IMG/VR virus record: IMGVR_UViG_3300045988_142058
Strand: one strand, 5' to 3'
Origin: a virus
Taxonomy: Duplodnaviria; Heunggongvirae; Uroviricota; Caudoviricetes
DNA: 47,591 bases
Both the position numbers and the translations under genes were made by a program. Within the stretch, counting starts at the first letter, position 1. Each line of letters begins with the position of its first letter. The notes beneath the pieces were generated by a model. It had not been told where the DNA came from and searched no databases. It saw only the letters and a program-made list of their open reading frames with translations. Shown here in pieces: positions 16,955 through 44,690 of this stretch.

Positions 16955-18811
16955 CTATATGGTTACGCCTTTACTTATAACTCTACGGCGTCTTCTACGT
17001 ATACCTGACGAGTTCTGCACATACACATTACCTCGCATTTCCTGTTCGGCAAGCCAGTTAAAATTAGGGTTCAGAATTTCCATCGCGGCAGTTGCATAGT
17101 TACGGCAATCAAGAGGCTCGTTACGCTCGTAGACTTTCACCCACTTTTCTTTTGTCTGCCCATTTTTATATTCAAATATTTTTTTCTCTGATAATAATCC
17201 TTTAAAGTATTCGGTATCATATCCTCTGTCAGAATCTAATGGGAAATGCATATAACCAGGACCAGGATCATGTAGTTTAATTCTTGCCATGATGGTCCCT
17301 TTACCATCATCAACCCCTAAATTAAACAACATAGCACCCACACGGTTATTATTACTTGGCTTTCCTATAAATGGTAAACCTACCCCACCACGCCCCCTGA
17401 TAGAGTATATTCGCCTTGATTCTCTCGGCTTAGTAAAGCGATATACCTCTGTCGTAAAATGCCCACCAGAGTCAATACAAACAGAAGAAATCTGTAATTT
17501 TCGACCGTCACGGAATGACCAGCTACGGAGTAAGTATTCATCAAGTTGTTTCCAGACAACATCTTGTGCGGGATCACCTAGGAATATTTTATATTCTATC
17601 CCCCATGACTCCTTACCTTTTCCCCAACCGACCAATTCACAAACTAAATACGTGTCCTGTACGTCAACACCAGCACTTAACAATAAAACATCATCTGGTA
17701 AAAACTCTTCAAACCTTATTCTGCGTTGCAACAAGTATTCAGGATCTATATCGTCTTTAGCATCCTCTTTCCATGGCTCACCCAGCTTAAGGTTAATAAA
17801 CTCCATTAATCCATTTTTATCGCGGTTTCTGGTTGCTTCCGTAAATTCTTCAACCAGCTCTGACAATGCAACCCACGGGGAGTAAAGACTGTTAATATGA
17901 AAACCAACAATACCTTTAACTCCAGTATGTTCAGCTATCCAAACCCCCTTCGCCAACCAATCAACGTCTGGTTTACCAGATCCGCGCATAATCCCGCCGC
18001 ACTCACAGCACTCATATCTGGCCGTTTCCGGTAACGCCTCACCTGAATCGCTCTTATCCCATCTGACTTGCGACCATTTCATCACCTGCATGGTGCCACA
18101 ACATGGGCAAGGAACATGGTAGTAACGCTGATCGGAGAGCTTAAACCACTTGTGGATTTTGCTCGTTTCCTCCAAAACAGGAGTAGAAACAAAAACTTTC
18201 TTACGATTATGAAAGTTGGTAGTACGCTGAATACCTAGTTTTAGTGGGTCGCCCTCCTGCGTCACACCGTAACGATCAATCTCATCAGCTAACAGTATTC
18301 GAATTGGCCTGGATGCAAGACCTGCTGGGGAATTAGCACCAACAAGTGCTATATATCCACCAGCGTAATGCTTCATACGTATAGTCGTGCTGGACTTTTT
18401 GGCTGCACCGCGCCCCTCTTTCCCTTCATGCAGCTTGTGTTTCAAACCAGGGGAATATTTGAACGTCGGATCAATACGCTCTTTTGAAAAAGCCTCAGCC
18501 GCCTCTACCGTTGGATAAATCATCAACTGAGGAGATGGCTCCTGATCTGCAAAGTAACCCATAACATTTAGCTGTAATTCGGATTTACCAATTTGCGAGC
18601 TACATTGCATCACTACTGTTTCTGTATCAGCGTCACCAATAACATCCATTGGTTCACGCAAATATGGCACTCGGCTTGTACGCCACGGCCCTGGCTCTGG
18701 AGACGTTCCCGGCGCTACATGACGATACTTATCAGCCCATTCGGAAACAGTTAGCCGTGATTTAGGGCGAAGCGCACGGAAAAAAGCGGTGCTCCATACT
18801 GTTTCGCCCAT
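16955..18811 (-). CDS. Terminase large subunit, lambda gpA-like
   Basis: 618 aa; Walker A-like QCSSQIGKSE; C-terminal nuclease-type region. Confidence 0.85.
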   Translation of the reverse strand: MGETVWSTAFFRALRPKSRLTVSEWADKYRHVAPGTSPEPGPWRTSRVPYLREPMDVIGDADTETVVMQCSSQIGKSELQLNVMGYFADQEPSPQLMIYPTVEAAEAFSKERIDPTFKYSPGLKHKLHEGKEGRGAAKKSSTTIRMKHYAGGYIALVGANSPAGLASRPIRILLADEIDRYGVTQEGDPLKLGIQRTTNFHNRKKVFVSTPVLEETSKIHKWFKLSDQRYYHVPCPCCGTMQVMKWSQVRWDKSDSGEALPETARYECCECGGIMRGSGKPDVDWLAKGVWIAEHTGVKGIVGFHINSLYSPWVALSELVEEFTEATRNRDKNGLMEFINLKLGEPWKEDAKDDIDPEYLLQRRIRFEEFLPDDVLLLSAGVDVQDTYLVCELVGWGKGKESWGIEYKIFLGDPAQDVVWKQLDEYLLRSWSFRDGRKLQISSVCIDSGGHFTTEVYRFTKPRESRRIYSIRGRGGVGLPFIGKPSNNNRVGAMLFNLGVDDGKGTIMARIKLHDPGPGYMHFPLDSDRGYDTEYFKGLLSEKKIFEYKNGQTKEKWVKVYERNEPLDCRNYATAAMEILNPNFNWLAEQEMRGNVYVQNSSGIRRRRRRVISKGVTI

Positions 18812-18816
18812 GAGGT

Positions 18817-19368
18817 TTATTCTTCCTGCTTAATAAATCGGGATTCCTGGAGCGCCTGAAGCGCAAAATTAATCTCGTCTTCAATAATGCGTTCGATCTC
18901 CCTGGCTGTTTTGCCTTCACAACGGGGAGCTGCTCTTGGAGCAATACTAAATAAGCGGCTACGCAATTCATTAGCTGCCAGAAATGCATCATCCCTGACC
19001 GCATCTTTAGCGATGAGAGAGCCTTCCTTTTCTTCAAATTCAAGGCGTTTCAGCTTTGCCTGATAAATTTTTTCTGCGGTCTTAGCCTTGTTGAATTGCA
19101 CCGCAACACCGGAAGTACCACCAGCTAATCCGGCATCATCAGCGGGTAACTCTGGTTGTTCCGAAGATATCCCATGCCCTCTTTTTCCATTTTCAGCAGA
19201 TACCTCACGGCCAACCTGTCGGCTCGCTTCATAAGCCGCACTGGCTTTATCAAAATCCAGCTTGCCGCTTTTCAGCACTGGAATGCGACCGGAACGACAG
19301 AGCTTCGTAACCATTGCCGGAGAAATACCTTTCCGGCGGGCAAACTCTGACTTACTGACGATGACCAT
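18817..19368 (-). CDS. Terminase small subunit
   Basis: First ATG at 19368 (track TTG at 19377); N-terminal HTH SKSEFARRKGISPAMVTKL. Confidence 0.6.
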   Translation of the reverse strand: MVIVSKSEFARRKGISPAMVTKLCRSGRIPVLKSGKLDFDKASAAYEASRQVGREVSAENGKRGHGISSEQPELPADDAGLAGGTSGVAVQFNKAKTAEKIYQAKLKRLEFEEKEGSLIAKDAVRDDAFLAANELRSRLFSIAPRAAPRCEGKTAREIERIIEDEINFALQALQESRFIKQEE

Positions 19369-19958
19369 TACTTGCAACCATTAGCAAGATACTGAACAAA
19401 TCCCTCATGCGTTTCATGCGCGTCGTGGTACTGACGATAAACATCCAGCAACAATGCAATTTCCATATCCGTCGCGGGAATACGTTCTTTATCAATAGCC
19501 AGGTACTTAATTTGAACAACAGGGGAAGAATTATCGTCTTCTTCCTGCGGCTGTTCATCGCTTAACATTTCGTCAAGCTCTGCATCATTAAACCCAAGCA
19601 GATCAATATCAAAATCATCATCCATTAACTCTTTGACTTCTTCGGCCAGAAGCTGCATATCCCAGCCAGCATTTAAGGCCAGCTTGTTATCTGCAATCCT
19701 GTACGCCTTCTTCTGTTTTTCAGAAAGGTTACTCAACCGAATCGCCGGAACTTTATCCATTTCCAGAATTTCGGCTGCTGCAAGCCGACCATGCCCCGCA
19801 ATCAGTTCATTCTTTTCATCGATCAGCACAGGATTAGTGAAACCGAACTCACGGATACTGTTCACCAACTGTTCAACCTGCTCATCTGAATGAGTCCGTG
19901 AATTTTTGGCGTATCTGAGCAGCTTACCGACTGGTAAATATTCGATTTTTAGAGCCAT
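19368..19958 (-). CDS. ParB-like nuclease domain protein
   Basis: 196 aa; ParB N-terminal motifs (NPVLIDEKNELIAGHGR, QKKAYRIADN); paralog of 22625..23248. Confidence 0.75.
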   Translation of the reverse strand: MALKIEYLPVGKLLRYAKNSRTHSDEQVEQLVNSIREFGFTNPVLIDEKNELIAGHGRLAAAEILEMDKVPAIRLSNLSEKQKKAYRIADNKLALNAGWDMQLLAEEVKELMDDDFDIDLLGFNDAELDEMLSDEQPQEEDDNSSPVVQIKYLAIDKERIPATDMEIALLLDVYRQYHDAHETHEGFVQYLANGCK

Positions 19959-20515
19959 TTTTTAACCGCCATAACACAACAGGTTAAAGAAAACTGTTTA
20001 ACTTATTGATACTAAAAGAGAAAAATGACGATCTTTTTACTCATAAAAAATCACACAAACCAGCATAATCATCTGATTTTATTAAGTTTTTATAAGTAAA
20101 AAGGATCTTGAGATGGTGTTTTGGTTAAAAGATTGGATGTATTTGCATGATTTATAACGATTTTTATCAGAACAACATCACATTGGTTAAAGATCTGCGC
20201 GTATCTTGATGATCTAAAAGAAAATTTTCTACTTTCTTTTTACCAGCACAAATACAGCAAAAAATCACGTTTTCCCGATATTTTTCAATGAGATGAGTAA
20301 ATTTCTTTTACCGCAACTTTTAACCTAACTTTTTTCACGTTTAGCTAGCCGAACATCGGGGTTCGAATGACCCGCATCCAACGCTTTTGGCCAGAAGGAC
20401 CCAATTCTGCCGGACGATGAAACGATGCTCGTGCTCACCCACAGACAGCCAGCGAGCGACGCTACAGAACACAGTGAATACACCCTGCATAACAACACCA
20501 TCAACCACACGATGA

Positions 20516-21235
20516 TTAACGAGAGAACGTCTTAGAAAGAATGTCATCAATAGCCTTTGTGACTTCATCAGCAAACGCATCGTCACCAGCACGTAGCGCC
20601 ACGCCATGCCAATCAAGACGCTGCGAATAGTTAGGTTGCTGGATAAACGTAAGGATCAACGTAGGACGCCGCCCAACGCGCTGCCAGACGCCTGGTTGAA
20701 GCGGGTTACTTGTACCAGGTCGAACAACAAAAAACTCCGTAGGCTTGCCCTGACGGCGATTTTGATGCGCATCTCGCTGAACTCTTAGGCCAGATAAGAC
20801 CTGCTGTAATTGCCCCCGCGAAATATTCCCGTATTTGTCCAGCTTTGCGCCGGGACCAGGAGCAAGCTGCCAGCCGTTAGGCAAATATCCACCAGCCCTT
20901 AGCGCCCCTTCTGAGCGTTTGTACTGTCGTTGGCCACCTTCGATTTGCGGAGTCAACGTTACAGGGGCTGGCGTTCCTCCCCATTCACGAGCATACACAA
21001 TGGCTGTAGGATCACTCTTCTTTGCGGCCAAAACGTAAGTAGAGTTCTGAATCCACGGCGTGGGCCTGTCAAATACCCGATTAATTTCATTCTTAATCGC
21101 AGCCTGAGAAGCCTTTGCCGTTCTGGTTGCCGCAAGCGCCATTGCGAATGGCAATTCGCGTTCTTCAAGGCGCTGGAGTTGTCGTTGAATATCCTGAGAA
21201 GAAAAATCAATCTTTATCTCAATTCTGTCAGCCAC
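20516..21235 (-). CDS. Hypothetical protein
   Basis: 239 aa ORF between methyltransferase and AT-rich intergenic region. Confidence 0.4.
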   Translation of the reverse strand: MADRIEIKIDFSSQDIQRQLQRLEERELPFAMALAATRTAKASQAAIKNEINRVFDRPTPWIQNSTYVLAAKKSDPTAIVYAREWGGTPAPVTLTPQIEGGQRQYKRSEGALRAGGYLPNGWQLAPGPGAKLDKYGNISRGQLQQVLSGLRVQRDAHQNRRQGKPTEFFVVRPGTSNPLQPGVWQRVGRRPTLILTFIQQPNYSQRLDWHGVALRAGDDAFADEVTKAIDDILSKTFSR

Positions 21236-21251
21236 CAGCGCCTCCTACACA

Positions 21252-22631
21252 CTACTTAATCAACGGCCGGAAAGCCGCCAACACATCATCAGATCGTCCG
21301 ATTGTTGAACCACCAGGCAACGGCAACTCAAACTCAAAACGAACAGCTTTCTCCAGACTCTCCCAGCGAAGAGAATCATCGTTAATAACGTGCAAATACC
21401 AGCTCTTACCGTTAAATACCGACCGCTTTATTCTGAAGCTATGCTCACGGCACAATTGCTTCACTTCCTCATCAGAATGAAACTTCTGATAAAACCAGTG
21501 TCCCTTCCGGTACAAAGCAGAAAAACCGTTATGGTCAATAAAATAAAGCCGGCTTATAGAGCTAGCAGCTTGCGTTCGTTTAAGCACACTCTCCAGCTCT
21601 CCACGACTACGGCCAGAAAAGAATATTGACCCACCAGCTTTACACAGGCCTTTCAGAACCGTCAGAACGGACCATTCAGCCTCGACACTATCGACCGAGT
21701 TCAAAACGCTATCGCAAATCACGTAGTCGTAACGCCCTCGCGTTTTTAAGTCGTCCACCAGCGTATCAATCATTCGGTTTGTTGCAGCCCTATCCAGAGT
21801 GTTTCCAGCGCCCTTACGGCGGAAAAGCTCGAGATCATGCAGGTTATATCCCTTTGCCCTGAGCATTCGCGCGTAGTCTCCCTGCCCCGAACCAAAATCA
21901 ATTCCTCTTGGCGTCTTGGCAATGATCGGGAGGATCAACGACTCATACAGGTTTGATTTCAGGCTGCCACCATTACGCAACCGCATAAGCTGCGCATACG
22001 TCTGGATGTATGTTGTTTTCTCCAGATGAGAATACTCAAATACACCATAAGTTTTATTCAGATAACTTTGGTATTTTTCCTTCTCAACATCAGGGATCAC
22101 AAACACCGTTAGCGGTGTGCGCGTCATCTTCGCTGCTAATGCATACTGAGCACAGTGAATAACCTCACCAGACTGAGTAGCAACACAACCACCCCACGGA
22201 CCATACTTGATAACCAGTTCCGCTATGTTCTTTCGAACATATGCCATTTTCGCGCGCATATTGCCTGAGATCTGGCTTGCCGATACCTGAACAAAACCAT
22301 GCTTATCTTCCAGACCGGACACCCTGCAACGCTCATCTCCGCTATCAAAATCCGTTCCGTTATGCAGTTGGTTAAACCGTACTTCGTCGTATACCGTCGT
22401 TTCACAGGGCAACACATACACCGCAGCACGCGTTATTCCCAACTTACGTAGCGCCTTCGTCCTTTGGTGTCCCGCCACCAGCAAATCGCCGCGCACTATC
22501 AATGGCTTCACAAGCCCCAGCTCCCTGACGCTTTCCGCCAGCCTCGCAAGATCATCCTCACCGATAAAACGCGGGTTATATTCCGCGCCGCGTAGGTGCG
22601 TTATGTCGTAATTCAGGTGAAGCATCAGCAC
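21252..22631 (-). CDS. ParB-domain / SAM-dependent DNA methyltransferase fusion
   Basis: 459 aa; N-terminal ParB-like (LVAGHQRTKA), C-terminal motif I-like IDFGSGQGDYA. Confidence 0.65.
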   Translation of the reverse strand: MLMLHLNYDITHLRGAEYNPRFIGEDDLARLAESVRELGLVKPLIVRGDLLVAGHQRTKALRKLGITRAAVYVLPCETTVYDEVRFNQLHNGTDFDSGDERCRVSGLEDKHGFVQVSASQISGNMRAKMAYVRKNIAELVIKYGPWGGCVATQSGEVIHCAQYALAAKMTRTPLTVFVIPDVEKEKYQSYLNKTYGVFEYSHLEKTTYIQTYAQLMRLRNGGSLKSNLYESLILPIIAKTPRGIDFGSGQGDYARMLRAKGYNLHDLELFRRKGAGNTLDRAATNRMIDTLVDDLKTRGRYDYVICDSVLNSVDSVEAEWSVLTVLKGLCKAGGSIFFSGRSRGELESVLKRTQAASSISRLYFIDHNGFSALYRKGHWFYQKFHSDEEVKQLCREHSFRIKRSVFNGKSWYLHVINDDSLRWESLEKAVRFEFELPLPGGSTIGRSDDVLAAFRPLIK

Positions 22632-23248
22632 ACCTCCCCAGCCAGCAATGCGGATACAAATCCGATATAGCTGCCATTATCATCAACATAACGAGACACC
22701 GCGCAGTCAAAACGATCCGCTTCCTCATCCGTTGCCGGGATTTTATGACCTCCAAATGACAGGTACTGAACTTTTACGCCTGATTTGGCCTCATCCTTCT
22801 CAAATGGGATATCCATACCCTCTGTGTCATCGTAGACCGCCGCACTCAATAAGTTATCCAGTTCGCGCTGAGTAAAACCAATTGAGTCCAGAGCAAAATC
22901 ATCGGCCGCAAGATCTGCAAGCTCCGCGCTTAACAACTCTTCATCCCAACCAGCATTCAGCGGAATACGGTTGTCGGCCAGACGATATGCCTTCTTCTGA
23001 TTCTCCGTTAGCCCAGCCAGAACAATGCAGGGAACATCATCCATCCCCAACTGAGTGGCCGCAGCAATTCGACCATGACCAGCAATTACAACGTTGTTCT
23101 CGTCTATCAGGATCGGATTAGTCCATCCGTACTCCTGTATGCTGGCAACAATCTGATCTACCTGCTCCACGGAGTGTGTGCGAGCGTTCTTTTCATAACC
23201 AATCAACACAGAAAGTGGTAAAGAAACCACATTAAGATGTTTTGTCAT
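22625..23248 (-). CDS. ParB-like nuclease domain protein
   Basis: 207 aa; same motif set as 19368..19958 (NPILIDENNVVIAGHGR, QKKAYRLADN). Confidence 0.75.
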   Translation of the reverse strand: MTKHLNVVSLPLSVLIGYEKNARTHSVEQVDQIVASIQEYGWTNPILIDENNVVIAGHGRIAAATQLGMDDVPCIVLAGLTENQKKAYRLADNRIPLNAGWDEELLSAELADLAADDFALDSIGFTQRELDNLLSAAVYDDTEGMDIPFEKDEAKSGVKVQYLSFGGHKIPATDEEADRFDCAVSRYVDDNGSYIGFVSALLAGEVC

Positions 23249-25121: not shown

Positions 25122-25230
25122 CGGGTTATCTCCGGTTTAACCAGGGCGGGTATCGCTCGGTTTCGGGTATAACCATAGGAAATTTTTTCCCACCTGTAAA
25201 GCACTTTTTATATAAATCTATAATTATATA
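25122..25230 (-). promoter_or_regulatory. Promoter-leader cassette copy 1
   Basis: ~109 bp near-identical to copies at 32043..32150 and 40979..41087; putative -35 TTTACA (25195..25200), -10 TATGGT (25172..25177), leader with GGAG RBS. Confidence 0.6.
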
Positions 25231-25233
25231 ATT

Positions 25234-25821
25234 CTATGACACTTGCCAGAGAGCATCATGCAACTGGATACCTCCATTGCACTGGTTGCCCCAGCCATGC
25301 CAGCCATCAGGTAAATCACCGCGAGCAAACAGCTCAATACGAGGAACATCGCCTAACAGCTTTACCAGCTTGTCACGGACCACATCAGGCTTCCGAGAAT
25401 GCTCCAGACGAGGCGATGTAAACGACTGAATGATTCCCGCATCAAGACGTGTCGGTAGTTTGCCTTTCACTGCAAACAAGCAATCTTCACTGTTTGCACG
25501 AGTCATATGCCCCATCCCCATCACCAGCTTATCTGGTTGTCGGCTACCACATTTGTTCCATGTGAAGCCCTTCATGGTCATCAGCCTGAATCCCCATGCT
25601 TTCACCACCAGCAACGCTTCTTCTGGCTGAGTCGGAACCCACCACATGGCCAACAAACACGATTCAGGATTAGCAAGCTGCCAGACAGGAATACGAGCAA
25701 TATCCTCAGCTTTCATCGTTGGATACTTAAAACCAGCGCCACGATTCCCATCCTTACACTTGTCTTTGTATTCCCAGGGGGGATCTGCATAAATCAGATT
25801 AAACAATGCAATTGCCTCCAT
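25234..25821 (-). CDS. MT-A70 family N6-adenine DNA methyltransferase
   Basis: 195 aa; DPPW motif (LIYADPPWEY). Confidence 0.8.
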   Translation of the reverse strand: MEAIALFNLIYADPPWEYKDKCKDGNRGAGFKYPTMKAEDIARIPVWQLANPESCLLAMWWVPTQPEEALLVVKAWGFRLMTMKGFTWNKCGSRQPDKLVMGMGHMTRANSEDCLFAVKGKLPTRLDAGIIQSFTSPRLEHSRKPDVVRDKLVKLLGDVPRIELFARGDLPDGWHGWGNQCNGGIQLHDALWQVS

Positions 25822-26129: not shown

Positions 26130-26205
26130 TGGTGGCCCCTACCGGATTTGAACCGATGACCGTGCGATTATGAGTCGCCTGCTCTAACCACTGAGCTAAG
26201 GGGCC
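26130..26205 (-). tRNA. tRNA with CAU anticodon, tRNA-Ile2 (lysidine)-like, CCA encoded
   Basis: 76 nt cloverleaf GGCCCCUUAGCUCAGUGGUUAGAGCAGGCGACUCAUAAUCGC...GGUUCAAAUCCGGUAGGGGCCACCA; 7-bp acceptor stem; resembles E. coli ileX from memory; elongator Met not excluded. Confidence 0.8.
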
Positions 26206-26374
26206 ATATTTGATCTGTTTGTCTGGTGTGGCGCCGCGCACGAAAATCCCAGCCAATAAATTCAGGATTTTTGGGCGCGGCGGCATATCAGACAAACATG
26301 GTTGATGCGTGCGCTAATGAGAAAAGCGCATAGAATGTTGTAACTATATATTTATATAATTATAGAAATATATA

Positions 26375-32042: not shown

Positions 32043-32150
32043 CAGATTTCTCCGGTTTAACCAGGGCGGGTATCGCTCGGTTTCGGGTATAACCTTAGGA
32101 AATTTTTTCCCACCTGTAAAGCACTTTTTATATAAATCTATAATTATATA
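32043..32150 (-). promoter_or_regulatory. Promoter-leader cassette copy 2
   Basis: Differs from copy 1 at -10 (TAAGGT) and in ~8 nt next to ATG; lies between Q-like gene and lysis-containing operon. Confidence 0.6.
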
Positions 32151-32211
32151 TTTATAGATTTTCGATGTTCCCGATGTCTACACACCATCAAAACAGCTCA
32201 AAATGACACTT

Positions 32212-35864: not shown

Positions 35865-35884
35865 AAGCGGGCTAACGCCCGCTT
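35865..35884 (+). terminator. Hairpin terminator after gene 35486..35860
   Basis: 8-bp stem AAGCGGGC/GCCCGCTT, loop TAAC, then AU-rich sequence. Confidence 0.4.
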
Positions 35885-36010
35885 ATATGATTATAGTTTT
35901 ATATAATTATATAAAACGCTTTTCATCCGCCAAAAAGTTGGTTATGCTTACCTCGTTCTATAAATATAGATTTATAGAATTATATAACCAAACACATGGA
36001 GTCTCGACAA

Positions 36011-36664
36011 ATGACTATCTCTGTAGGTATTTTCAACGGAAAAGGCGGCGTAACCAAATCAACAATTGCCCGTGCTTTAGCAGTTGCTTATGCAAAGGCT
36101 GGCTGGAATGTATGCCTGATCGATATGGATGTGCTTAACGGAACGGTAACGCGTTGGGTACAACGCAGAATGGCCAACAATATCGAACCAGCAATCGCGG
36201 CGCAGCCGTGCGGCACACCATCACAAGTCCAGAAAATCATCGAATCAGAAGTATACGACCTGGTTATCGTCGATGGCGGTGCCTACGCATCTGAATCAGT
36301 ACCGAAGCTCTCTGAATTTCTGGATATGGTTATTTTGCCAACCAGATTCTCTACCGATGACCTGGAAACCACCGTTAACACAGCTCATGGCATCGTTAAA
36401 AAGGGTGTGCCAATCAAGAAAATTTGCATGGTGTTCTCAGGCGCGGCTGAAAACGAAGCCGACTACATTGAAGCCCAAGAGTACCTGGCTAATACGCCAT
36501 ACTTTGTTGTCGATAAGTACATTCCCCACAAGCCAGCTCTGAGCAAAGCTCAGGATAAGGGCTTAAGCCTCATTGAGTGCTCATACGTTGCGCCACGCAA
36601 AAAGGCAGACGACGTTATTCAGGGGATTATCAACCAGCTTGAGGCTCTGACTACTGCCGCGTAA
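36011..36664 (+). CDS. parA: ParA-like partition ATPase (small, type Ib-like)
   Basis: Deviant Walker A FNGKGGVTKST; start at second ATG with GGAG RBS. Confidence 0.8.
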   Translation: MTISVGIFNGKGGVTKSTIARALAVAYAKAGWNVCLIDMDVLNGTVTRWVQRRMANNIEPAIAAQPCGTPSQVQKIIESEVYDLVIVDGGAYASESVPKLSEFLDMVILPTRFSTDDLETTVNTAHGIVKKGVPIKKICMVFSGAAENEADYIEAQEYLANTPYFVVDKYIPHKPALSKAQDKGLSLIECSYVAPRKKADDVIQGIINQLEALTTAA

Positions 36665-37178: not shown

Positions 37179-37200
37179 AAAAAAGGCCCCCGAAGGGGCC
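37179..37200 (-). terminator. Intrinsic terminator for small-peptide transcript
   Basis: GGCCCC-cgaa-GGGGCC followed on minus RNA by UUUUUU; 7 nt after peptide stop. Confidence 0.6.
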
Positions 37201-37206
37201 TAATCG

Positions 37207-37329
37207 CTACTTGCTGCTAATGTTTATCGTCACATTCAGAGCGTTATCAGTAATCTTCCAACCCTCCCCATGTGGCGTAAACAAAGCTCCAGTAACAACG
37301 ATAAAAATACACATACAGTATTTTTTCAT
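37207..37329 (-). CDS. Small hydrophobic peptide (40 aa), candidate type I toxin
   Basis: MKKYCMCIFIVVTGALFTPHGEGW...; AAGGG RBS; intrinsic terminator immediately after stop; upstream leader carries 15-nt antisense target. Confidence 0.4.
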   Translation of the reverse strand: MKKYCMCIFIVVTGALFTPHGEGWKITDNALNVTINISSK

Positions 37330-37622
37330 TGTATGGCCCTTACAGGCCGTTTCACGGCATCCCCACCGACGAAAACAACGCGAGAGCAAGCACGGCTGCT
37401 TGTGCTTGCATGTACGGCAACAGGAAATCCTCCCCTAAAGTCGGTGCCCGGGTGCGAATCGGCGGGAAGGTCCACAGGTATTTTACGATTATTTTAAGAT
37501 TAGTAATAGGAAAGAAATTAAACGAAAAAAACAGTTTATTTTCACAAAATCAGTAACCTACCCACAATCTGTGAGTTTGCTGACACAACAAGAACCACAA
37601 TTTTTTGATGTATAATAGTGGA

Positions 37623-37753
37623 CTATTATTACCTTTTGAGTAAAATCAATTTGCTGCTTGTGCTTGCGTGGTTGTTTATACAACAACGTAATGCTGAAAG
37701 GACCGCGAATCCGATCAGCACGAAAGAACCGTCCTCAATAGGGCGGTTTTTTT
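37623..37753 (+). ncRNA. Candidate ~130 nt small RNA (antitoxin-like)
   Basis: TATAAT -10 at 37611..37616; intrinsic terminator at 37728..37753; contains GCTGCTTGTGCTTGC (37653..37667). Confidence 0.4.
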
Positions 37754-37772
37754 GTTTCTGCCTACCAATAAA

Positions 37773-37787
37773 CCCACGCTATGTGGT
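37773..37787. promoter_or_regulatory. Near-operator CCCAC-gctat-GTGGT in antirepressor leader
   Basis: One mismatch to consensus; between sRNA terminator and ant operon. Confidence 0.3.
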
Positions 37788-37900
37788 TGTCTCTGTTAAA
37801 ATCCCGCCGTATTGACATGAATGCGCCATTGGTGGACACTTTCCGAGCCGTAGCAAAATCTACGGTCGGGATTAGCCTCCTGAATAACACGATGGCGCAT

Positions 37901-37921
37901 ACCGCGTTAGCGGTTTTTTTA
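37901..37921 (+). terminator. Second intrinsic terminator in antirepressor leader
   Basis: ACCGC-gtta-GCGGT followed by TTTTTTT. Confidence 0.45.
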
Positions 37922-38082
37922 TGCGTAGAGCACTGTTACGCCCAAATTATGGTGGGTCGTACAGGGGCGGAGAAATCCGCGCCGGTTCGTCATTGTGTCC
38001 GGTAAGGCTAACCCTGTACGGCTCACCACCATTTGATTAGCCTCGAATGGCGGTGATAGTTCCATATACTGGAGATATCACA

Positions 38083-38274
38083 ATGACAAACCTACCCCAT
38101 GACTATTACGTCAACCTCGTAAAGATCCTTCTCAAGAAAGCCTCATACGCCGATAAATTCCGCCTGGCTGAAATCATCGAGCGCGAAGCTATGCGCATCG
38201 CCAGCAACGATAACGCTGTTTCTGACGCAAAAATCTCCCTCGTAACCAAAGTAGTTATGGGAGGTGCAAAATGA
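38083..38274 (+). CDS. Hypothetical small protein upstream of antirepressor
   Basis: 63 aa, GGAGA RBS, stop overlaps antirepressor ATG. Confidence 0.4.
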   Translation: MTNLPHDYYVNLVKILLKKASYADKFRLAEIIEREAMRIASNDNAVSDAKISLVTKVVMGGAK

Positions 38275-39452
38275 AAACGCTTCCGACCGTTAACACCCTA
38301 CAGCCTATCCTGCATAACCAGCTCCCCGTTATCACTACTGAACTACTGGCGCAATTGTATGGAACCGAGCGCCAACGTCTGACAAACAATTTCAATAGAA
38401 ACAAGGAACGTTTTATAGAAGGTAAACACTTTTTTAGGATAGAAGGTAAAGAGTTACGAGAGTTGAAGAACAAAAACTCTTTAAGAGTTCCTGTGAGAGT
38501 AGTTAACGAACCATCTTTAAGAGGGTTACAAATTCCCCCGAAAGTTCGCTCCCTCATCCTCTGGACAGAACGCGGGGCTGCACGTCACGCCAAAATGCTT
38601 GAAACTAACCAAGCGTGGGATGTGTTCGAACGGCTGGAAGACTGCTATTTCAACCAGAACGCACAAACGGCCGCGACCGTTACCGTCTCGCCAAGCAATG
38701 CTCGTGAGGTTGTCGATACGCTCAACGCCAAACCGATGTTTTACATTAAGGTGTGCAATAACGAGCCACTCACAACCTCAGCCGATGTTGCCCAGGCATT
38801 CAGCACCACAAACAATTCCATCGTTATGGCCATCGATGCGTTACGCATTCCTCGCACAGCTGCGGCGCGTCATTTCTTTAAAGAGCAACGACCGTTGGAA
38901 GGAAGCGACCGCGAAATAACAATCTATCGCATGACAAAAGACGGATTTACCTTGCTCATGGAGAGCATCGACGGTCCAAGCGTGAAAGATATCAAGCTGG
39001 CCTACATTGAAGCCTTTAACGCTATCAGCAGCGTGTTAAAAACACAGTACGAGCGTGATCTGGCTAAACGACTGTACCAAGAAAAAACGATTATCCGCGC
39101 GGCAACAGAGCATAATCGGCTATTAACGGAACCGAACTACAGGAAGGAACTAATCAAGGAGTTTGACAAGGCAACAGGGAAAACCAAAGCGGCGCTAAAT
39201 CTGCCAGCAATGACTCAGGAAAATGTGATATCAGCCTTACTTCTTGATCTGCTCAGAAACGCCAGAGCACTTATCAGCTTTGACGAAAACCTGAATCCTC
39301 AGCTCAAGCTACTACCACCGACAGGCAAAGTAGTCGACCAAGCTGATCACAACAGCATACTCAGCGTACTGGATGCAAACCTGCCAGCCAAGACACTACA
39401 GGATCTGATAAAAACATGTGCTGATAAGCTGGCACAGAAAAGCAGACCATAA
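38271..39452 (+). CDS. Antirepressor (ORF6N/ANT N-terminus, Rha-like C-terminus)
   Basis: 393 aa; N-terminal LPVITTELLAQLYGTERQRLTNNFNRNKERF; terminator after stop. Confidence 0.75.
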   Translation: MKTLPTVNTLQPILHNQLPVITTELLAQLYGTERQRLTNNFNRNKERFIEGKHFFRIEGKELRELKNKNSLRVPVRVVNEPSLRGLQIPPKVRSLILWTERGAARHAKMLETNQAWDVFERLEDCYFNQNAQTAATVTVSPSNAREVVDTLNAKPMFYIKVCNNEPLTTSADVAQAFSTTNNSIVMAIDALRIPRTAAARHFFKEQRPLEGSDREITIYRMTKDGFTLLMESIDGPSVKDIKLAYIEAFNAISSVLKTQYERDLAKRLYQEKTIIRAATEHNRLLTEPNYRKELIKEFDKATGKTKAALNLPAMTQENVISALLLDLLRNARALISFDENLNPQLKLLPPTGKVVDQADHNSILSVLDANLPAKTLQDLIKTCADKLAQKSRP

Positions 39453-40978: not shown

Positions 40979-41087
40979 CGGGTTATCTCCGGTTTAACCA
41001 GGGCGGGTATCGCTCGGTTTCGGGTATAACCTTAGGAAATTTTTTCCCACCTGTAAAGCACTTTTTATATAAATCTATAATTATATA
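40979..41087 (-). promoter_or_regulatory. Promoter-leader cassette copy 3
   Basis: One substitution relative to copy 1; heads operon 40598..40978 plus HTH gene. Confidence 0.6.
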
Positions 41088-41245
41088 AATAATAGTAACT
41101 GGTGTTTTTTTAGGCGAAGCATTAAACATTTTTGTTTAGCTTATTGGCAAGGTCTTGAAAAAGACATTTCAGCAATGCTATACCATTGAACATGGTATCG
41201 GCTGAATTTTGTAATTAACACATTTTAAACAATTTGAGGTGCCAA

Positions 41246-43089: not shown

Positions 43090-43670
43090 ATTTACTACAT
43101 TGCGTATAAGACAAGTTTTCTATGTCTAATAGGAAATGATGTTTCTTACGTTTTATCGCGTTCTGATGGCTACTGTGTGCGTATTTATCGACGTTTATCG
43201 ATAAGGCTCGCCCCTTCCTCCTGCAAAGCCCGGCCGTAGGCCTTATTTCGGCCTTATATAAATTGATTTTGTATAGTTCGAAACGTGCCGTTTCGAAAAG
43301 GATGATCAGGCTGCTCCATGCCTCCGGCAAGTGCCGGAGGAGGTATATATTTGAGCGTAGCGACTCGAACCGGCGCGAGCTTTAGCTCGCTGCAAGGGCG
43401 AACATATTCACAGGCAAAGCCTGCGTAAGTTAAATAAAGAAAGTCTTAATAAAAGAAAGTGATTTTGCATTTATTTGTTTAGTGCATCTATTATAAAAAA
43501 CCATTTGCATATACATATCAAAACTGTGGATAACTTTATTAGCCGATGCCTGTGAAGGCGATATTTTTGCTGTGTTCAGGTTTAGAGAAAATTAATTTAG
43601 ATTGTTTTTTGAACAAACATTTTATTGCGACGTAGATAATCCTCCGGTAAAACCGGATTCATCATTAAGG
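43090..43670. other. Candidate replication origin downstream of repA
   Basis: ~580 bp without credible ORF; DnaA box TGTGGATAA at 43525..43533; AT-rich stretch with ATTTGCAT repeats; perfect palindromes 43277..43297 and 43321..43340; TTTATCGA direct repeats. Confidence 0.45.
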
Positions 43671-43674
43671 TGGG

Positions 43675-44523
43675 TTAATGTTGGAGTGATTTCCAGGTCT
43701 TTCTTAACCTGTTATAACGCTGCTCAACGAGGGATCGTAAATATGCAAGGTCAGCTCCAGGATACATGCCATCAGCAAATTCCTGGCTAACCTCTCTAGT
43801 GATTTGATGACGAAGTTCGGCCTCTCCCTTTTCCCGAACAAGACGCGCAGCTCTCTCCGCTGCTTTCTGTTTTGCCTTTATCTCTCTGGCCGTCTTCCTC
43901 TGACGCCATACATTCTCCATCTGCTCCTGAATAACAATACGCTTATAATCAGCCTCCGTTATCGCTTTTTTAAGCCGTTCGCTATTCTTCGCATTGAAGT
44001 AATTAAGTTTCTGGCTAACCGCACGTCTCCATGCTTGTTCAGTAATACCAACGGTTTCCAGCAGTTGATCACGAATCTCTATTTTCGCTGGCCAATACTG
44101 TTTATTCACCCGATCCCAGCGACGTTCATAATCAATAAAACCTAACTCTTTCAGTTGCGACAACGCCCTTGTACAGCGCGTTATAGACTTGTTCCCAGCT
44201 TCGGATACGGTAGACAGGCCGCAAAAATCAGCCAACGCCTCAGCACTGGCCAGAACCCGCTTAGAAATGATGTTTACATGGTGCAAAATCGCAGCAATCA
44301 CAGCATTAATTGCCCGACGACGATGCTCGTTTATCCGGCGTTTCCGCTCTGACGGTTGATTAACGTAGAACGCAACCTCACACGTAAGATCACGACCATT
44401 AATGCGCTGTAAAGCATCAGATAACACCAGCGGCAGCTTGTGCGTATGGTGCTTTGGAGGCTGGAACTCCGGCGACAAATTACAAACGTAAGCTGAACGT
44501 AGAGACGGCATTGGTCTATCCAT
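43675..44523 (-). CDS. repA: Replication initiator RepA, IncFII RepA1-like
   Basis: ATG at 44523 (MDRPMPSLRS...); block ...ALADFCGLSTVSEAGNKSITRCTRALSQLKELGFIDY... matches IncFII RepA1 pattern CGL-T-S-AG--SITR-TRAL--L-ELG-I-Y (from memory). Frame open upstream to 44685. Confidence 0.8.
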   Translation of the reverse strand: MDRPMPSLRSAYVCNLSPEFQPPKHHTHKLPLVLSDALQRINGRDLTCEVAFYVNQPSERKRRINEHRRRAINAVIAAILHHVNIISKRVLASAEALADFCGLSTVSEAGNKSITRCTRALSQLKELGFIDYERRWDRVNKQYWPAKIEIRDQLLETVGITEQAWRRAVSQKLNYFNAKNSERLKKAITEADYKRIVIQEQMENVWRQRKTAREIKAKQKAAERAARLVREKGEAELRHQITREVSQEFADGMYPGADLAYLRSLVEQRYNRLRKTWKSLQH

Positions 44524-44535
44524 ATGTTCGCTCTT

Positions 44536-44650
44536 GCGTCCACGGAAAACCAACGTATAATGGGAGTTGTCGAGGCGCCCATGGATATGTTTGTTGGTTT
44601 TCCGTGGATGTCGCAAGAAGCCCGCAGATTTATCTGCGGGCTTTTTGTTT
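44536..44650 (+). ncRNA. Candidate CopA-like antisense RNA in repA leader
   Basis: Plus-strand intrinsic terminator (9-bp stem 44620..44628/44633..44641 + TTTTTGTTT) antisense to repA leader; 16-bp stem-loop 44539..44608. 5' end not defined. Confidence 0.4.
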
Positions 44651-44690
44651 CCATATCTGGTCGTTTTCCAACCAGACACCCACAATCGTA

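Follow-up and report, generated by a model that had tools for sequence, protein, structure and literature searches.

A probable lambda-type cos site with a long repeat array in a widespread E. coli phage-plasmid

The gene-free gap and its neighbouring genes

The window (the whole stretch of DNA analysed here, 47,591 nt) corresponds to a ~48-kb E. coli phage-plasmid, and the genes around the region of interest lie on its minus strand. This region is a 557-bp gap at positions 19959-20515, bounded exactly by the minus-strand ORFs 19368-19958 and 20516-21235. The first-pass annotation had found no convincing ORF in it, and this holds: the ORFs that overlap the gap are all short (33-91 aa), and relatives show non-triplet indels there. 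The division into an AT-rich and a GC-richer part described at the time is equally real, with a GC content of 0.23-0.32 over ~19950-20349 compared with 0.55-0.57 over 20350-20499. The orientation needs correcting. The flanking genes are encoded on the minus strand, and hence the site must be read along that strand too, with the GC-richer part coming before the AT-rich part as transcription runs.

Read along the minus strand, the locus consists of a GC-rich spacer, a cosQ-like heptamer, 23 nt, a 12-nt block (putative cosN), a CTAGCT box, ~400 bp of AT-rich DNA (putative cosB), and the genes for a ParB/Srx-domain protein, the small terminase (TerS) and the large terminase (TerL). The ParB/Srx-domain protein (196 aa, 19368-19958, minus strand; PF02195, phrog_620) is encoded by the first gene after the site. 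TerS (186 aa, 18817-19377, minus strand; phrog_57, E = 4.5e-42) has a Cox-like helix-turn-helix (HTH) at residues 6-39; a comparison with lambda Nu1 (residues 3-33) in hhalign gave a weak match (E = 0.0017 but a probability of 15%), and a sequence search of the PDB with TerS returned chance matches only. TerL (618 aa, 16955-18811, minus strand; PF05876, E = 7e-76; PF20454, E = 2.5e-84) carries the gpA ATPase and nuclease domains that place it in the gpA family, is 28% identical to lambda gpA over 92% of its length, and is predicted to nick cosN.

The variable GC-rich spacer (20404-20515, minus strand), which runs from the stop codon of the upstream 239-aa gene to cosQ, is outside the conserved core of the site. 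It occurs in at least three non-homologous versions among syntenic relatives, with 5-25% identical columns across four enterobacterial sequence classes, and has no stable RNA fold (z = -0.57). No tRNA was called in the gap, a tRNA suggested by GGTTCGAAT being recovered neither with ARAGORN nor with the Rfam tRNA model, and Rfam gave no match at E <= 1 within 19900-20560.

Elsewhere, the element encodes an IncFII RepA (43678-44685, 23 kb from the gap), a single ParA (35996-36661, 16 kb from the gap), an MT-A70 methyltransferase and a ParB-methyltransferase fusion. Genes annotated as 'ParB' stand on both sides of the gap, and the proteins flanking it match the ParB N-terminal/Srx domain only; in the 196-aa protein (PF02195), no recognised DNA-binding HTH was found. 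The exact ParB protein of the window is listed in 11,341 blocks of a public assembly collection, and 71 of 72 matches in complete E. coli genomes are on plasmids. Every contig returned by the exact-protein look-up runs through the site and thus carries no information on ends. Scanning species-representative genomes with the small terminase gave no confirmed relative, and a scan with the ParB profile returned mostly unrelated ParB-domain phage genes with few informative cos-like loci. We consider it very probable that the element is a temperate myovirus kept as a circular plasmid and that the gap is its cos, organised like that of lambda.

The AT-rich repeat array and its candidate binders

The putative cosB (~400 bp, ~19960-20350) contains nine GGTWAAA(A)G(A) repeats in both orientations together with two IHF-consensus sites. 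The GGTWAAA motif is found seven times in 19959-20360 versus 0.36 times per kb elsewhere, a ~48-fold enrichment, and none of 2000 shuffles reached seven. Direct repeats had been noticed in the first pass, and the copies of TTGGTTAAA at 20121 and 20183 (the whole window holds only three) turn out to belong to this larger family. The first three repeats point one way and most of the others the opposite way.

R1 (TTAGGTTAA, 20316-20325, minus strand) is the best-conserved repeat in all relatives. It occupies bp 48-57 from the end, the positional equivalent of lambda R3, which lies around bp 56-59 (PMC4669245, Fig 2 legend). R2 (GGTAAAAGAA, 20303-20312, minus strand) is in tandem with R1, with a period of 12 at 20305-20333, and is followed by R3 (GGTAAAAAGA, 20235-20244, minus strand). 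R4 (GGTTAAAGAT, 20185-20194, plus strand) is inverted relative to R1-R3, and its TTTAACC is conserved in all classes; R5 (GGTTAAAAGA, 20123-20132, plus strand) is inverted as well. The degenerate R6 (AGTAAAAAGG, 20095-20104, plus strand) ends the right arm of a 31-nt inverted repeat, whose left arm holds the degenerate R7 (GAGTAAAAAG, 20033-20042, minus strand). The arms of this inverted repeat (I1; 20033-20063 and 20073-20103) are 77% complementary, its region has 65% identical columns across the four classes, and GTAAAAAGATC of R7 is conserved in three of them. R8 (GGTTAAAGAA, 19982-19991, plus strand) is again inverted, with a conserved TAACC, while R9 (GGTTAAA, 19961-19967, minus strand) overlaps the ribosome-binding region of the ParB/Srx gene and may be coincidental.

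IHF site a (20066-20078; AATCAGATGATTA on the minus strand, matching WATCARNNNNTTR) is centred between the inverted R6 and R7, and the L009, L014 and L039 sequence classes retain it. IHF site b (19999-20011, minus strand; TAACTTATTGATA as written on the plus strand) lies between R7 and R8 and is perfect in the window and in the L014 and L039 types, with one or two mismatches in L015 and L009. Of the eight consensus matches in the 47.6-kb window, two fall in cosB, and both are flanked by repeats of opposite orientation. At the level of sequence, the region thus has the arrangement expected of a cosB, that is, repeats beside cosN and an IHF site between opposed repeats.

The GATC cluster reported in the first pass fared less well. 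Sites are present at 20030, 20104, 20192 and 20211, four against 0.86 expected from local dinucleotide shuffles (0.95% of which contain at least four), and their density ties that of the densest 200-bp stretch of the window, making the enrichment real but modest. They are, however, largely a by-product of the repeat motif, with three of the four sites abutting repeats: two directly extend a repeat (20192-20195 for R4 and 20030-20033 for R7), and a third lies one base after a repeat. The GATC at 20104-20107 overlaps the last base of R6. Given the modest enrichment and this adjacency, we downgraded the cluster as an independent signal.

TerS is the predicted binder of the R repeats, through its N-terminal HTH, and we infer that TerS and IHF bind the cosB sites. 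In L015, L160, L164 and the Vibrio phages, the repeat positions are all GTTAAC (at the aligned position of R2 in L015, L160 and L164; extended to GGTTAAC at that of R3 in L015), and the predicted TerS recognition helix of these phages differs. L028, considered as a natural chimera with a retained cos and a TerS 48% identical, proved to be a frameshift artefact and is uninformative.

Alternatively, the ParB/Srx protein could bind the repeats, either in place of TerS or alongside it. A doubtful reading, but one with some chance of being right, retains the region as cos and has the AT-rich array bound mainly by the ParB/Srx protein (19368-19958) as a third packaging or end-handling factor, so that TerS needs only R1. 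The position of the gene fits this proposal, since every enterobacterial relative, as well as Vibrio phages X29 and XM1, has it between cosB and TerS; the arrays are also largest in the enterobacterial relatives, with 9 to at least 12 sites, and N15 requires just one R3-type site (PMC4669245). Against it, relatives without a ParB gene between cos and TerS keep short arrays after cosN (L171, for example, has three copies of ATGCAACYRGTT), the match of the protein is confined to the N-terminal domain described above, and the TerS recognition helix varies in step with the repeat motif. In the Vibrio and marine relatives with a ParB gene, the arrays comprise just 2-5 sites. Remoter relatives, L171 and L175 among them, lack the gene, whose product is a clade-specific member of the packaging module.

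An elaboration of this reading, which we regard as unlikely, would make packaging in the clade a three-protein system. The ParB/Srx protein would bind or remodel the expanded enterobacterial array (9 to at least 12 sites) as an additional cos-recognition or end-processing factor, maybe tuned by adenine methylation of those GATC sites that directly extend several of the repeats, which would restrict packaging to plasmid copies whose replication or methylation state is right. We found no paper linking ParB-like proteins to cos function.

It is more unlikely still that the AT-rich part also acts in late-gene control, as a promoter or activator array for the ParB-TerS-TerL-head operon that is possibly Dam-modulated through GATC. 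This part does lie directly upstream of the first gene of the structural module, the excess of GATC and the two methyltransferase genes of the element would suit such a role, and three sequence classes preserve GATCCTTTTTAC and GTAAAAAGATC in inverted arrangement. Nevertheless, a scan of both strands for signals of the late control region suggested in the first pass found no sigma-70-like promoter (zero versus 2.1 expected) and no terminator, and because the neighbouring genes are all co-directional, read-through across cos, as in lambda, suffices. Furthermore, the whole interval in the Vibrio relatives is ~140 bp, almost all repeats and free of GATC, and GATC is lost in some classes, such as L009.

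The probable cos core and the genome ends

The cosQ-like heptamer GGGTCCT (20396-20402, minus strand) is located 23 nt upstream of the first nick, and both its sequence and this spacing are identical to those of lambda (48473-48479). The enterobacterial relatives have kept it, as have Vibrio phages XM1 and X29, and in IMG/VR relatives it recurs at a spacing of 22-25 nt, with the variant AGGTACT in L160, L163 and L165. The role of cosQ is in the termination of packaging (PMC4669245), and GGGTCCT is predicted to be the corresponding signal here.

The cohesive-end block 5'-GGTCATTCGAAC-3' (cosN; 20361-20372, minus strand) was delimited from record and contig ends, with predicted nicks at 20373/20372 on the minus strand and 20360/20361 on the plus strand. 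It is enclosed by the TTCGAA-centred quasi-palindrome at 20356-20374 that the first-pass annotation had singled out and that reads TCGGGGTTCGAATGACCCG. In the spacer between cosN and R1 lies the CTAGCT box (20343-20348; minus strand CGGCTAGCTAAACG), recognised by its conservation: in all the relatives, those from Vibrio and from viromes included, CTAG never varies and CTAGCT hardly does (CTAGAT in L015, L160 and L164). At the matching place lambda carries TTTTCGCTATTT. Among 27 syntenic loci, conservation is highest over cosQ-cosN-R1-R2 (70-95% identical columns), the 16-mer around cosN being invariant in the first IMG/VR set by ascertainment, which the TerS-found L164 and L160 relieve only partly.

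The ends themselves come from several kinds of record. Yersinia phage isolates 97-99.8% identical to the window have records that differ only in which end holds the 12-mer: those of vB_YpM_39 and vB_YpM_41 start with GGTCATTCGAAC followed by CCCGATG, and that of vB_YpM_44 starts with CCCGATG and ends with GCG followed by GGTCATTCGAAC. Vibrio phage XM1 (65% TerL identity, with the ParB-TerS-TerL order kept) has GGTGCTCGCGAC at both ends of its record plus a terminal A, and the record of X29 breaks within 1 nt of the homologous place, ending in 11 of the 12 bases. Eight IMG/VR virome contigs from TerS/TerL relatives start exactly at GGTNNNNNNNNN followed by CCC[G/A]...CTAGCT. In one contig, L184, an Illumina adapter tail ending in TCTTCCGATCT is fused directly to GGTGCGCGCCAC. 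Indirectly, then, the near-identical records show both of the edges of GGTCATTCGAAC that nicks 12 bp apart would leave, XM1 has its own 12-mer at each end, and the eight virome contigs begin at the homologous one.

The terminase most likely cuts the genome in the gap, leaving 12-base sticky ends. The adapter fusion in L184 can be read as an end-repaired physical end, and since the 12-mer would be retained only if the overhang was 5', it suggests 5' overhangs. The 12-mer kept at left ends, the L184 adapter and the right-end 12-mer plus A of XM1 all fit filled-in 5' overhangs in these relatives, and we tentatively infer the same polarity for the element of the window. The cos proposal of the first pass, made from position alone, is well supported by the record ends, the breakpoints of relatives, a cosQ at lambda spacing and a gpA-family TerL, and the records of the sequenced isolates point away from packaged ends elsewhere or headful packaging.

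That submitters' conventions or assembly errors produced the record and contig ends at the 12-mer, with packaging proceeding other than by cohesive ends, appears very unlikely to us. The Yersinia phage records are flagged 'circular', submitters often rotate genomes, and we found no publication on these phages or on how the start points of their records were chosen. Rotation, however, usually starts at a gene rather than 414 bp upstream of one, and the three records use both edges of a single 12-mer. Nor would it explain the duplication of the 12-mer at both ends of XM1, or eight unrelated virome assemblies beginning at the homologous base, one of them fused to an adapter; a TerL of the gpA family and a lambda cosQ at lambda spacing agree with cohesive ends as well. 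Scarcely credible is the idea that the AT-rich region serves the plasmid form as its replication origin or partition (centromere) site, for although clustered short repeats, GATC sites and 'ParB'-annotated genes on both sides might evoke one, the region has no DnaA boxes, the IncFII-type RepA initiator and the only ParA are as distant as noted above, the flanking 'ParB' proteins have just the N-terminal/Srx domain, and the same repeat architecture accompanies the terminase genes in Vibrio phages and in virome contigs that, at the loci examined, share no plasmid genes.

Comparison with known packaging sites and a possible mechanism

With lambda, the site shares the cosQ heptamer, its 23-nt distance to the nick and, as predicted here, a 12-nt staggered cut. 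In both, the left nick falls within CG/GG, and a TTCG-CTA box is found on the right. In both, the first repeat lies ~48 bp from the end, where lambda has R3, and repeats in both orientations flank an IHF consensus between an inverted pair, lambda I1 (the IHF site) being located between R3 and R2 (lambda cos anatomy according to PMC4669245). Just downstream follow genes for a gpA-family TerL and for a TerS that here has a predicted N-terminal HTH. The differences are no less clear. The 12-mer GGTCATTCGAAC matches that of lambda at 3 of 12 positions, and the phage thus falls outside the 'lambda-like phages' as strictly defined by Feiss et al. (PMC4669245); the 12-mer of the distant relative L171, GGTCGGCGCAAC, is closer to lambda (7 of 12). 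The cosB measures ~400 bp with nine repeats and two IHF-consensus sites, compared with 120 bp, three and one in lambda, and the repeat motif is unrelated (GGTWAAAAG versus CGTTTCC). Here, a ParB/Srx gene is inserted between cosB and the TerS gene, and the replicon is a circular plasmid. Most of the extra length of cosB is unaccounted for by our main model.

The closest isolated relatives of the packaging module are Vibrio phages X29, phi 2, Rostov 7 and vB_VpaM_XM1 (TerL 63-66% identical), a group proposed as 'Weiviridae' (PMC11432961). They have the same order of end, repeats, ParB-like gene, TerS and TerL, together with a homologous cosQ box, the GCG/GGT...AC/CCCG cut site and the CTAGCT box. 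In contrast, their 12-mer is GGTGCTCGCGAC, their cosB is only ~140 bp long with five direct GTTAACA repeats and no GATC, and the C-terminal half of their ParB diverges. The XM1 paper contains no discussion of termini, and a paper mentioning vB_EcoM-613R2 does not discuss cos.

The 'simple' cos of N15, a phage whose prophage is likewise a plasmid, also belongs to the lambda type; its cosQ is conserved, and its critical TerS site lies where lambda has R3 (PMC4669245). The ends of N15 are lambda-like (10 of 12), unlike those described here; it has a single critical repeat and an accessory one inside the TerS gene rather than a nine-repeat array, and its plasmid is linear with telomeres, whereas that of the window is circular. 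P1 packages by headful, using PacA/PacB and hexamer TGATCA/G repeats. Its pac is comparable as the packaging site of an E. coli phage-plasmid with clustered GATC associated with repeats, but the present site combines a gpA-type terminase with defined 12-nt ends and has no more than four GATC sites, of which one reads TGATC.

A mechanism on the lambda plan would run as follows. During lytic growth, TerS (18817-19377) would bind the repeats through its N-terminal HTH, aided by IHF bending, and would position the gpA-type TerL (16955-18811) for two nicks 12 bp apart, leaving 5'-protruding 12-nt cohesive ends. Packaging would probably proceed towards decreasing window coordinates, taking in the ParB, TerS, TerL, head and tail genes in turn, until the next cos, putatively recognised through cosQ, is cut and packaging ends. 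After injection, the ends would anneal and be ligated, and the circle would replicate as an IncFII-RepA/ParA plasmid.

The site is of a known kind, a lambda-type cos; new are its own sticky ends and a much longer repeat array. What the lambda plan leaves unexplained is this array, along with the presence of a ParB/Srx gene among the packaging genes. The lambda cosQ heptamer and its exact spacing persist alongside terminases only 28% identical, despite diverged cohesive ends. For a very widespread E. coli phage-plasmid, the location at which its DNA is cut and packaged, and probably the manner, are now pinned down. This gives a correct linear map and a 12-nt end sequence that can be used to tell virions from plasmids, and it defines the minimal signal that would let the phage mobilise other DNA.

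Genome ends and the cos site

The 557-bp gene-free gap (19959-20515) is a lambda-type cos site, the first of the two alternatives (cos or late control region) proposed by the first-pass annotation. The records of three Yersinia pestis phage isolates, which share 97-99.8% identity with the window in both structural and non-structural halves, differ solely in which end bears a 12-nt block (window 20361-20372): vB_YpM_39 and vB_YpM_41 start with GGTCATTCGAAC followed by CCCGATG and end in GGATGCG, and vB_YpM_44 starts with CCCGATG and ends in GGATGCG followed by GGTCATTCGAAC. One block switching ends is the pattern given by a 12-nt cohesive end. The Vibrio phages X29, phi 2, Rostov 7, and XM1, the nearest isolated relatives by large terminase (TerL, 63-66% identity), have the same order of end, ParB-like gene, small terminase (TerS), and TerL. 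The XM1 record carries its own 12-mer, GGTGCTCGCGAC, at both ends with one extra A after the right copy, a pattern consistent with 5' overhangs that have been filled in and A-tailed; the X29 break lies within 1 nt of this place, the record ending in 11 of the 12 bases.

More distant relatives were collected by a small-terminase profile scan of IMG/VR (TerS 31-56%, TerL 53-77% identical). Eight virome contigs begin exactly at GGTNNNNNNNNN, followed by CCC(G/A)...CTAGCT. In one contig (L184), an Illumina adapter tail ending in GTGCTCTTCCGATCT is fused directly to GGTGCGCGCCAC and CCCG, and its sister contigs read through the junction as GGGTCCT, 24 or 25 nt, GGTCGGGGCGAG, and CCCG. End repair of a left end leaves the 12-mer in place only for a 5' overhang, and we infer the same polarity for the window's own element. 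Several lineages independently show breaks at the two edges of the 12-mer, which makes an arbitrary choice of record start very unlikely.

At the nicks (slashes), lambda reads ACGGGTCCTTTCCGGTGATCCGACAGGTTACG / GGGCGGCGACCT / CGCGGGTTTTCGCTATTT and the minus strand of the window TTGGGTCCTTCTGGCCAAAAGCGTTGGATGCG / GGTCATTCGAAC / CCCGATGTTCGGCTAGCT. GGGTCCT is identical in lambda (48473-48479, its cosQ) and in the window (20396-20402) and lies 23 nt from the nick in both. A cos site consists of cosQ, cosN, and cosB, of which cosQ, a highly conserved 7-bp site, is required for packaging termination; lambda cosB comprises 120 bp with R3, R2 (inverted), and R1, and the IHF site I1 sits between R3 and R2 (Feiss et al., PMC4669245). 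The window's first repeat, at bp 48-57 from the end, occupies the position of lambda R3. The window's cosB (~19960-20350), about three times as long as that of lambda, is a notable detail, as is a ParB/Srx gene within the packaging module. Only 3 of the 12 cohesive-end bases agree with lambda, so that by the definition of Feiss et al. the element is not "lambda-like"; certain distant relatives come nearer to the lambda end (e.g. GGTCGGCGCAAC in locus L171).

Repeats of cosB and their conservation

Every feature first described is there: the gap with an AT-rich and a GC-richer half, the GATC sites, both copies of TTGGTTAAA, and a quasi-palindrome centred on TTCGAA. The four GATC sites (0.86 expected; 0.95% of local shuffles reach 4) carry modest statistical weight. 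The weight of the GGTWAAA family, to which TTGGTTAAA belongs, is strong: seven copies in 402 bp, versus 0.36/kb in the rest of the window, a count reached by none of 2000 dinucleotide shuffles. Including degenerate copies there are nine repeats, numbered outward from cosN. Read on the gene strand, R1, R2, R3, R7, and R9 point forward, and R4, R5, R6, and R8 are reversed. Of the GATC sites, two are direct extensions of a repeat (GGTTAAAGATC, GTAAAAAGATC) and another lies one base past a repeat (GTAAAAAGGATC), which largely accounts for the cluster. The IHF consensus WATCARNNNNTTR has only eight matches in the whole window, two of them in cosB: one (20066-20078, IHF-a) at the centre of an imperfect inverted repeat of 31 nt, with R6 and R7 at the ends of its arms, and one (19999-20011) between R7 and R8.

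A 16-mer spanning cosN, used as query, retrieved 27 syntenic IMG/VR loci, which fall into four or five sequence classes and share the order 239-aa gene, ~100-146 bp, cosN, ~355-415 bp, ParB, TerS, TerL; its invariance across them is by ascertainment. Found through TerS instead, L164 has the same 12-mer and L160 has GGTCATTCGTAC. Conservation peaks over cosQ-cosN-R1-R2, with 70-95% of columns identical (four classes), has secondary peaks at R6/IHF-a and R7, and falls to 5-25% in the GC-rich upstream spacer. Relatives that are otherwise syntenic differ in that spacer (20404-20515), of which there are no fewer than three unrelated versions, and homology returns a few bases ahead of GGGTCCT, forming a sharp mosaic boundary at the cos edge.

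The repeat motif co-varies as a set. GTTAAC stands at every aligned repeat position in L015 and L164, five direct copies of GTTAACA fit into ~140 bp in the Vibrio phages, and L160 has at least 12 GGTTAACAAA/TTTGTTAACC sites, of which the first three are likewise forward and all others reversed; repeat number ranges from ~2-5 (marine relatives) to these 12 or more. The predicted TerS recognition helix varies in parallel (SPAMVTKL, SRAAITKL, SHVWVKKL). L160 (IMGVR_UViG_640753048_000002; TerL 77% identical) has a variant cosQ, AGGTACT, and a cosB longer than the window's, in the region about 530 bp upstream of its ParB gene.

Within the cohesive-end region, 20359-20369 contains GGGTTCGAATG, similar to the tRNA T-arm consensus GGTTCGAAT; neither a tRNA nor a piece of one was detected there, and the likeness looks coincidental.

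The phage-plasmid and its gene order

The window is a phage-plasmid of roughly 48 kb. A 661-bp stretch around the gap has matches of 97-99.7% identity in 72 complete E. coli genomes, 71 of them on plasmids of ~47-50 kb such as pATCC25922_1, whose RefSeq annotation comprises a lambda-like head module, a P2-like contractile tail module, lysis genes, and, confirmed by Pfam, an IncFII-type RepA, ParA, and a toxin-antitoxin pair. Every gene around the gap is encoded on the minus strand: TerL (16955-18811; gpA ATPase and nuclease domains), TerS (18817-19377; phrog_57), and a 196-aa ParB/Srx-domain protein (19368-19958), and, upstream of the gap, the 239-aa protein (20516-21235), a 459-aa ParB_N-methyltransferase fusion (21252-22631), and a second, 207-aa ParB/Srx paralogue (22625-23248). 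These last two (21252-23248), just upstream of cosQ, would be at the last-packaged end of the genome, and an MT-A70 methyltransferase gene (25237-25821, minus) lies farther upstream. The cluster is kept beside cos in several relatives; that it serves DNA modification or anti-restriction is speculation. Among IMG/VR loci L051-L126, many metagenomic viral contigs encoding a ParB_N-domain relative of the 196-aa protein stop 13-150 bp upstream of the gene for it, which suggests that genomes opening with a ParB-like gene are common far outside this family.

Elsewhere, an 8-bp AT unit (TTATATAA or TAATTATA) forms five intergenic tandem arrays of 3-4 copies (25208-25237, 26341-26374, 32128-32156, 35883-35914, 41065-41088), scattered across the non-structural half with one just upstream of the ParA gene; they may serve as operators or as centromere-like sites. 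Matches to ryfA, isrK, and C4 antisense RNA at the Rfam gathering score (37179-38033 and 38271-39449) adjoin an ORF6N/Rha-domain protein, and the area resembles a P1/P7-type antisense-controlled antirepressor immunity region. A tRNA (26130-26205, minus, anticodon CAT) is called tRNA-Met by ARAGORN and Rfam; RefSeq has tRNA-Ile at the matching relative place in pATCC25922_1, between the lysis genes and the MT-A70 gene. Downstream of the IncFII-type repA, at the expected place of an IncFII-type origin, AT-rich DNA contains two adjacent TTAAATAAAGAAAGT-like 15-mers (43430-43460).

Repeat binding and other readings of the gap

All protein-DNA contacts at the window's cos are ones that we infer. 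In relatives without the ParB gene, cosN is still followed by short repeat arrays, and this persistence favours the small terminase as the putative repeat binder. Binding of the array by the ParB/Srx protein, which concerns part of the mechanism, is the most serious open alternative. A late promoter in the gap has no support and is rather unlikely. It is unlikely that the AT-rich region is a replication origin or centromere: DnaA boxes are absent from it, RepA and ParA are 23 kb and 16 kb away, only the N-terminal/Srx domain is present in the flanking "ParB" proteins, and the repeat architecture moves with the terminase genes into hosts and contigs without those plasmid genes. The gap as an RNA gene is unsupported.

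We found no published description of cos for this phage-plasmid. The lambda-type cos described here is a further case of a well-known type of site, notable for how deeply cosQ and its spacing are conserved and for non-lambda cohesive ends.
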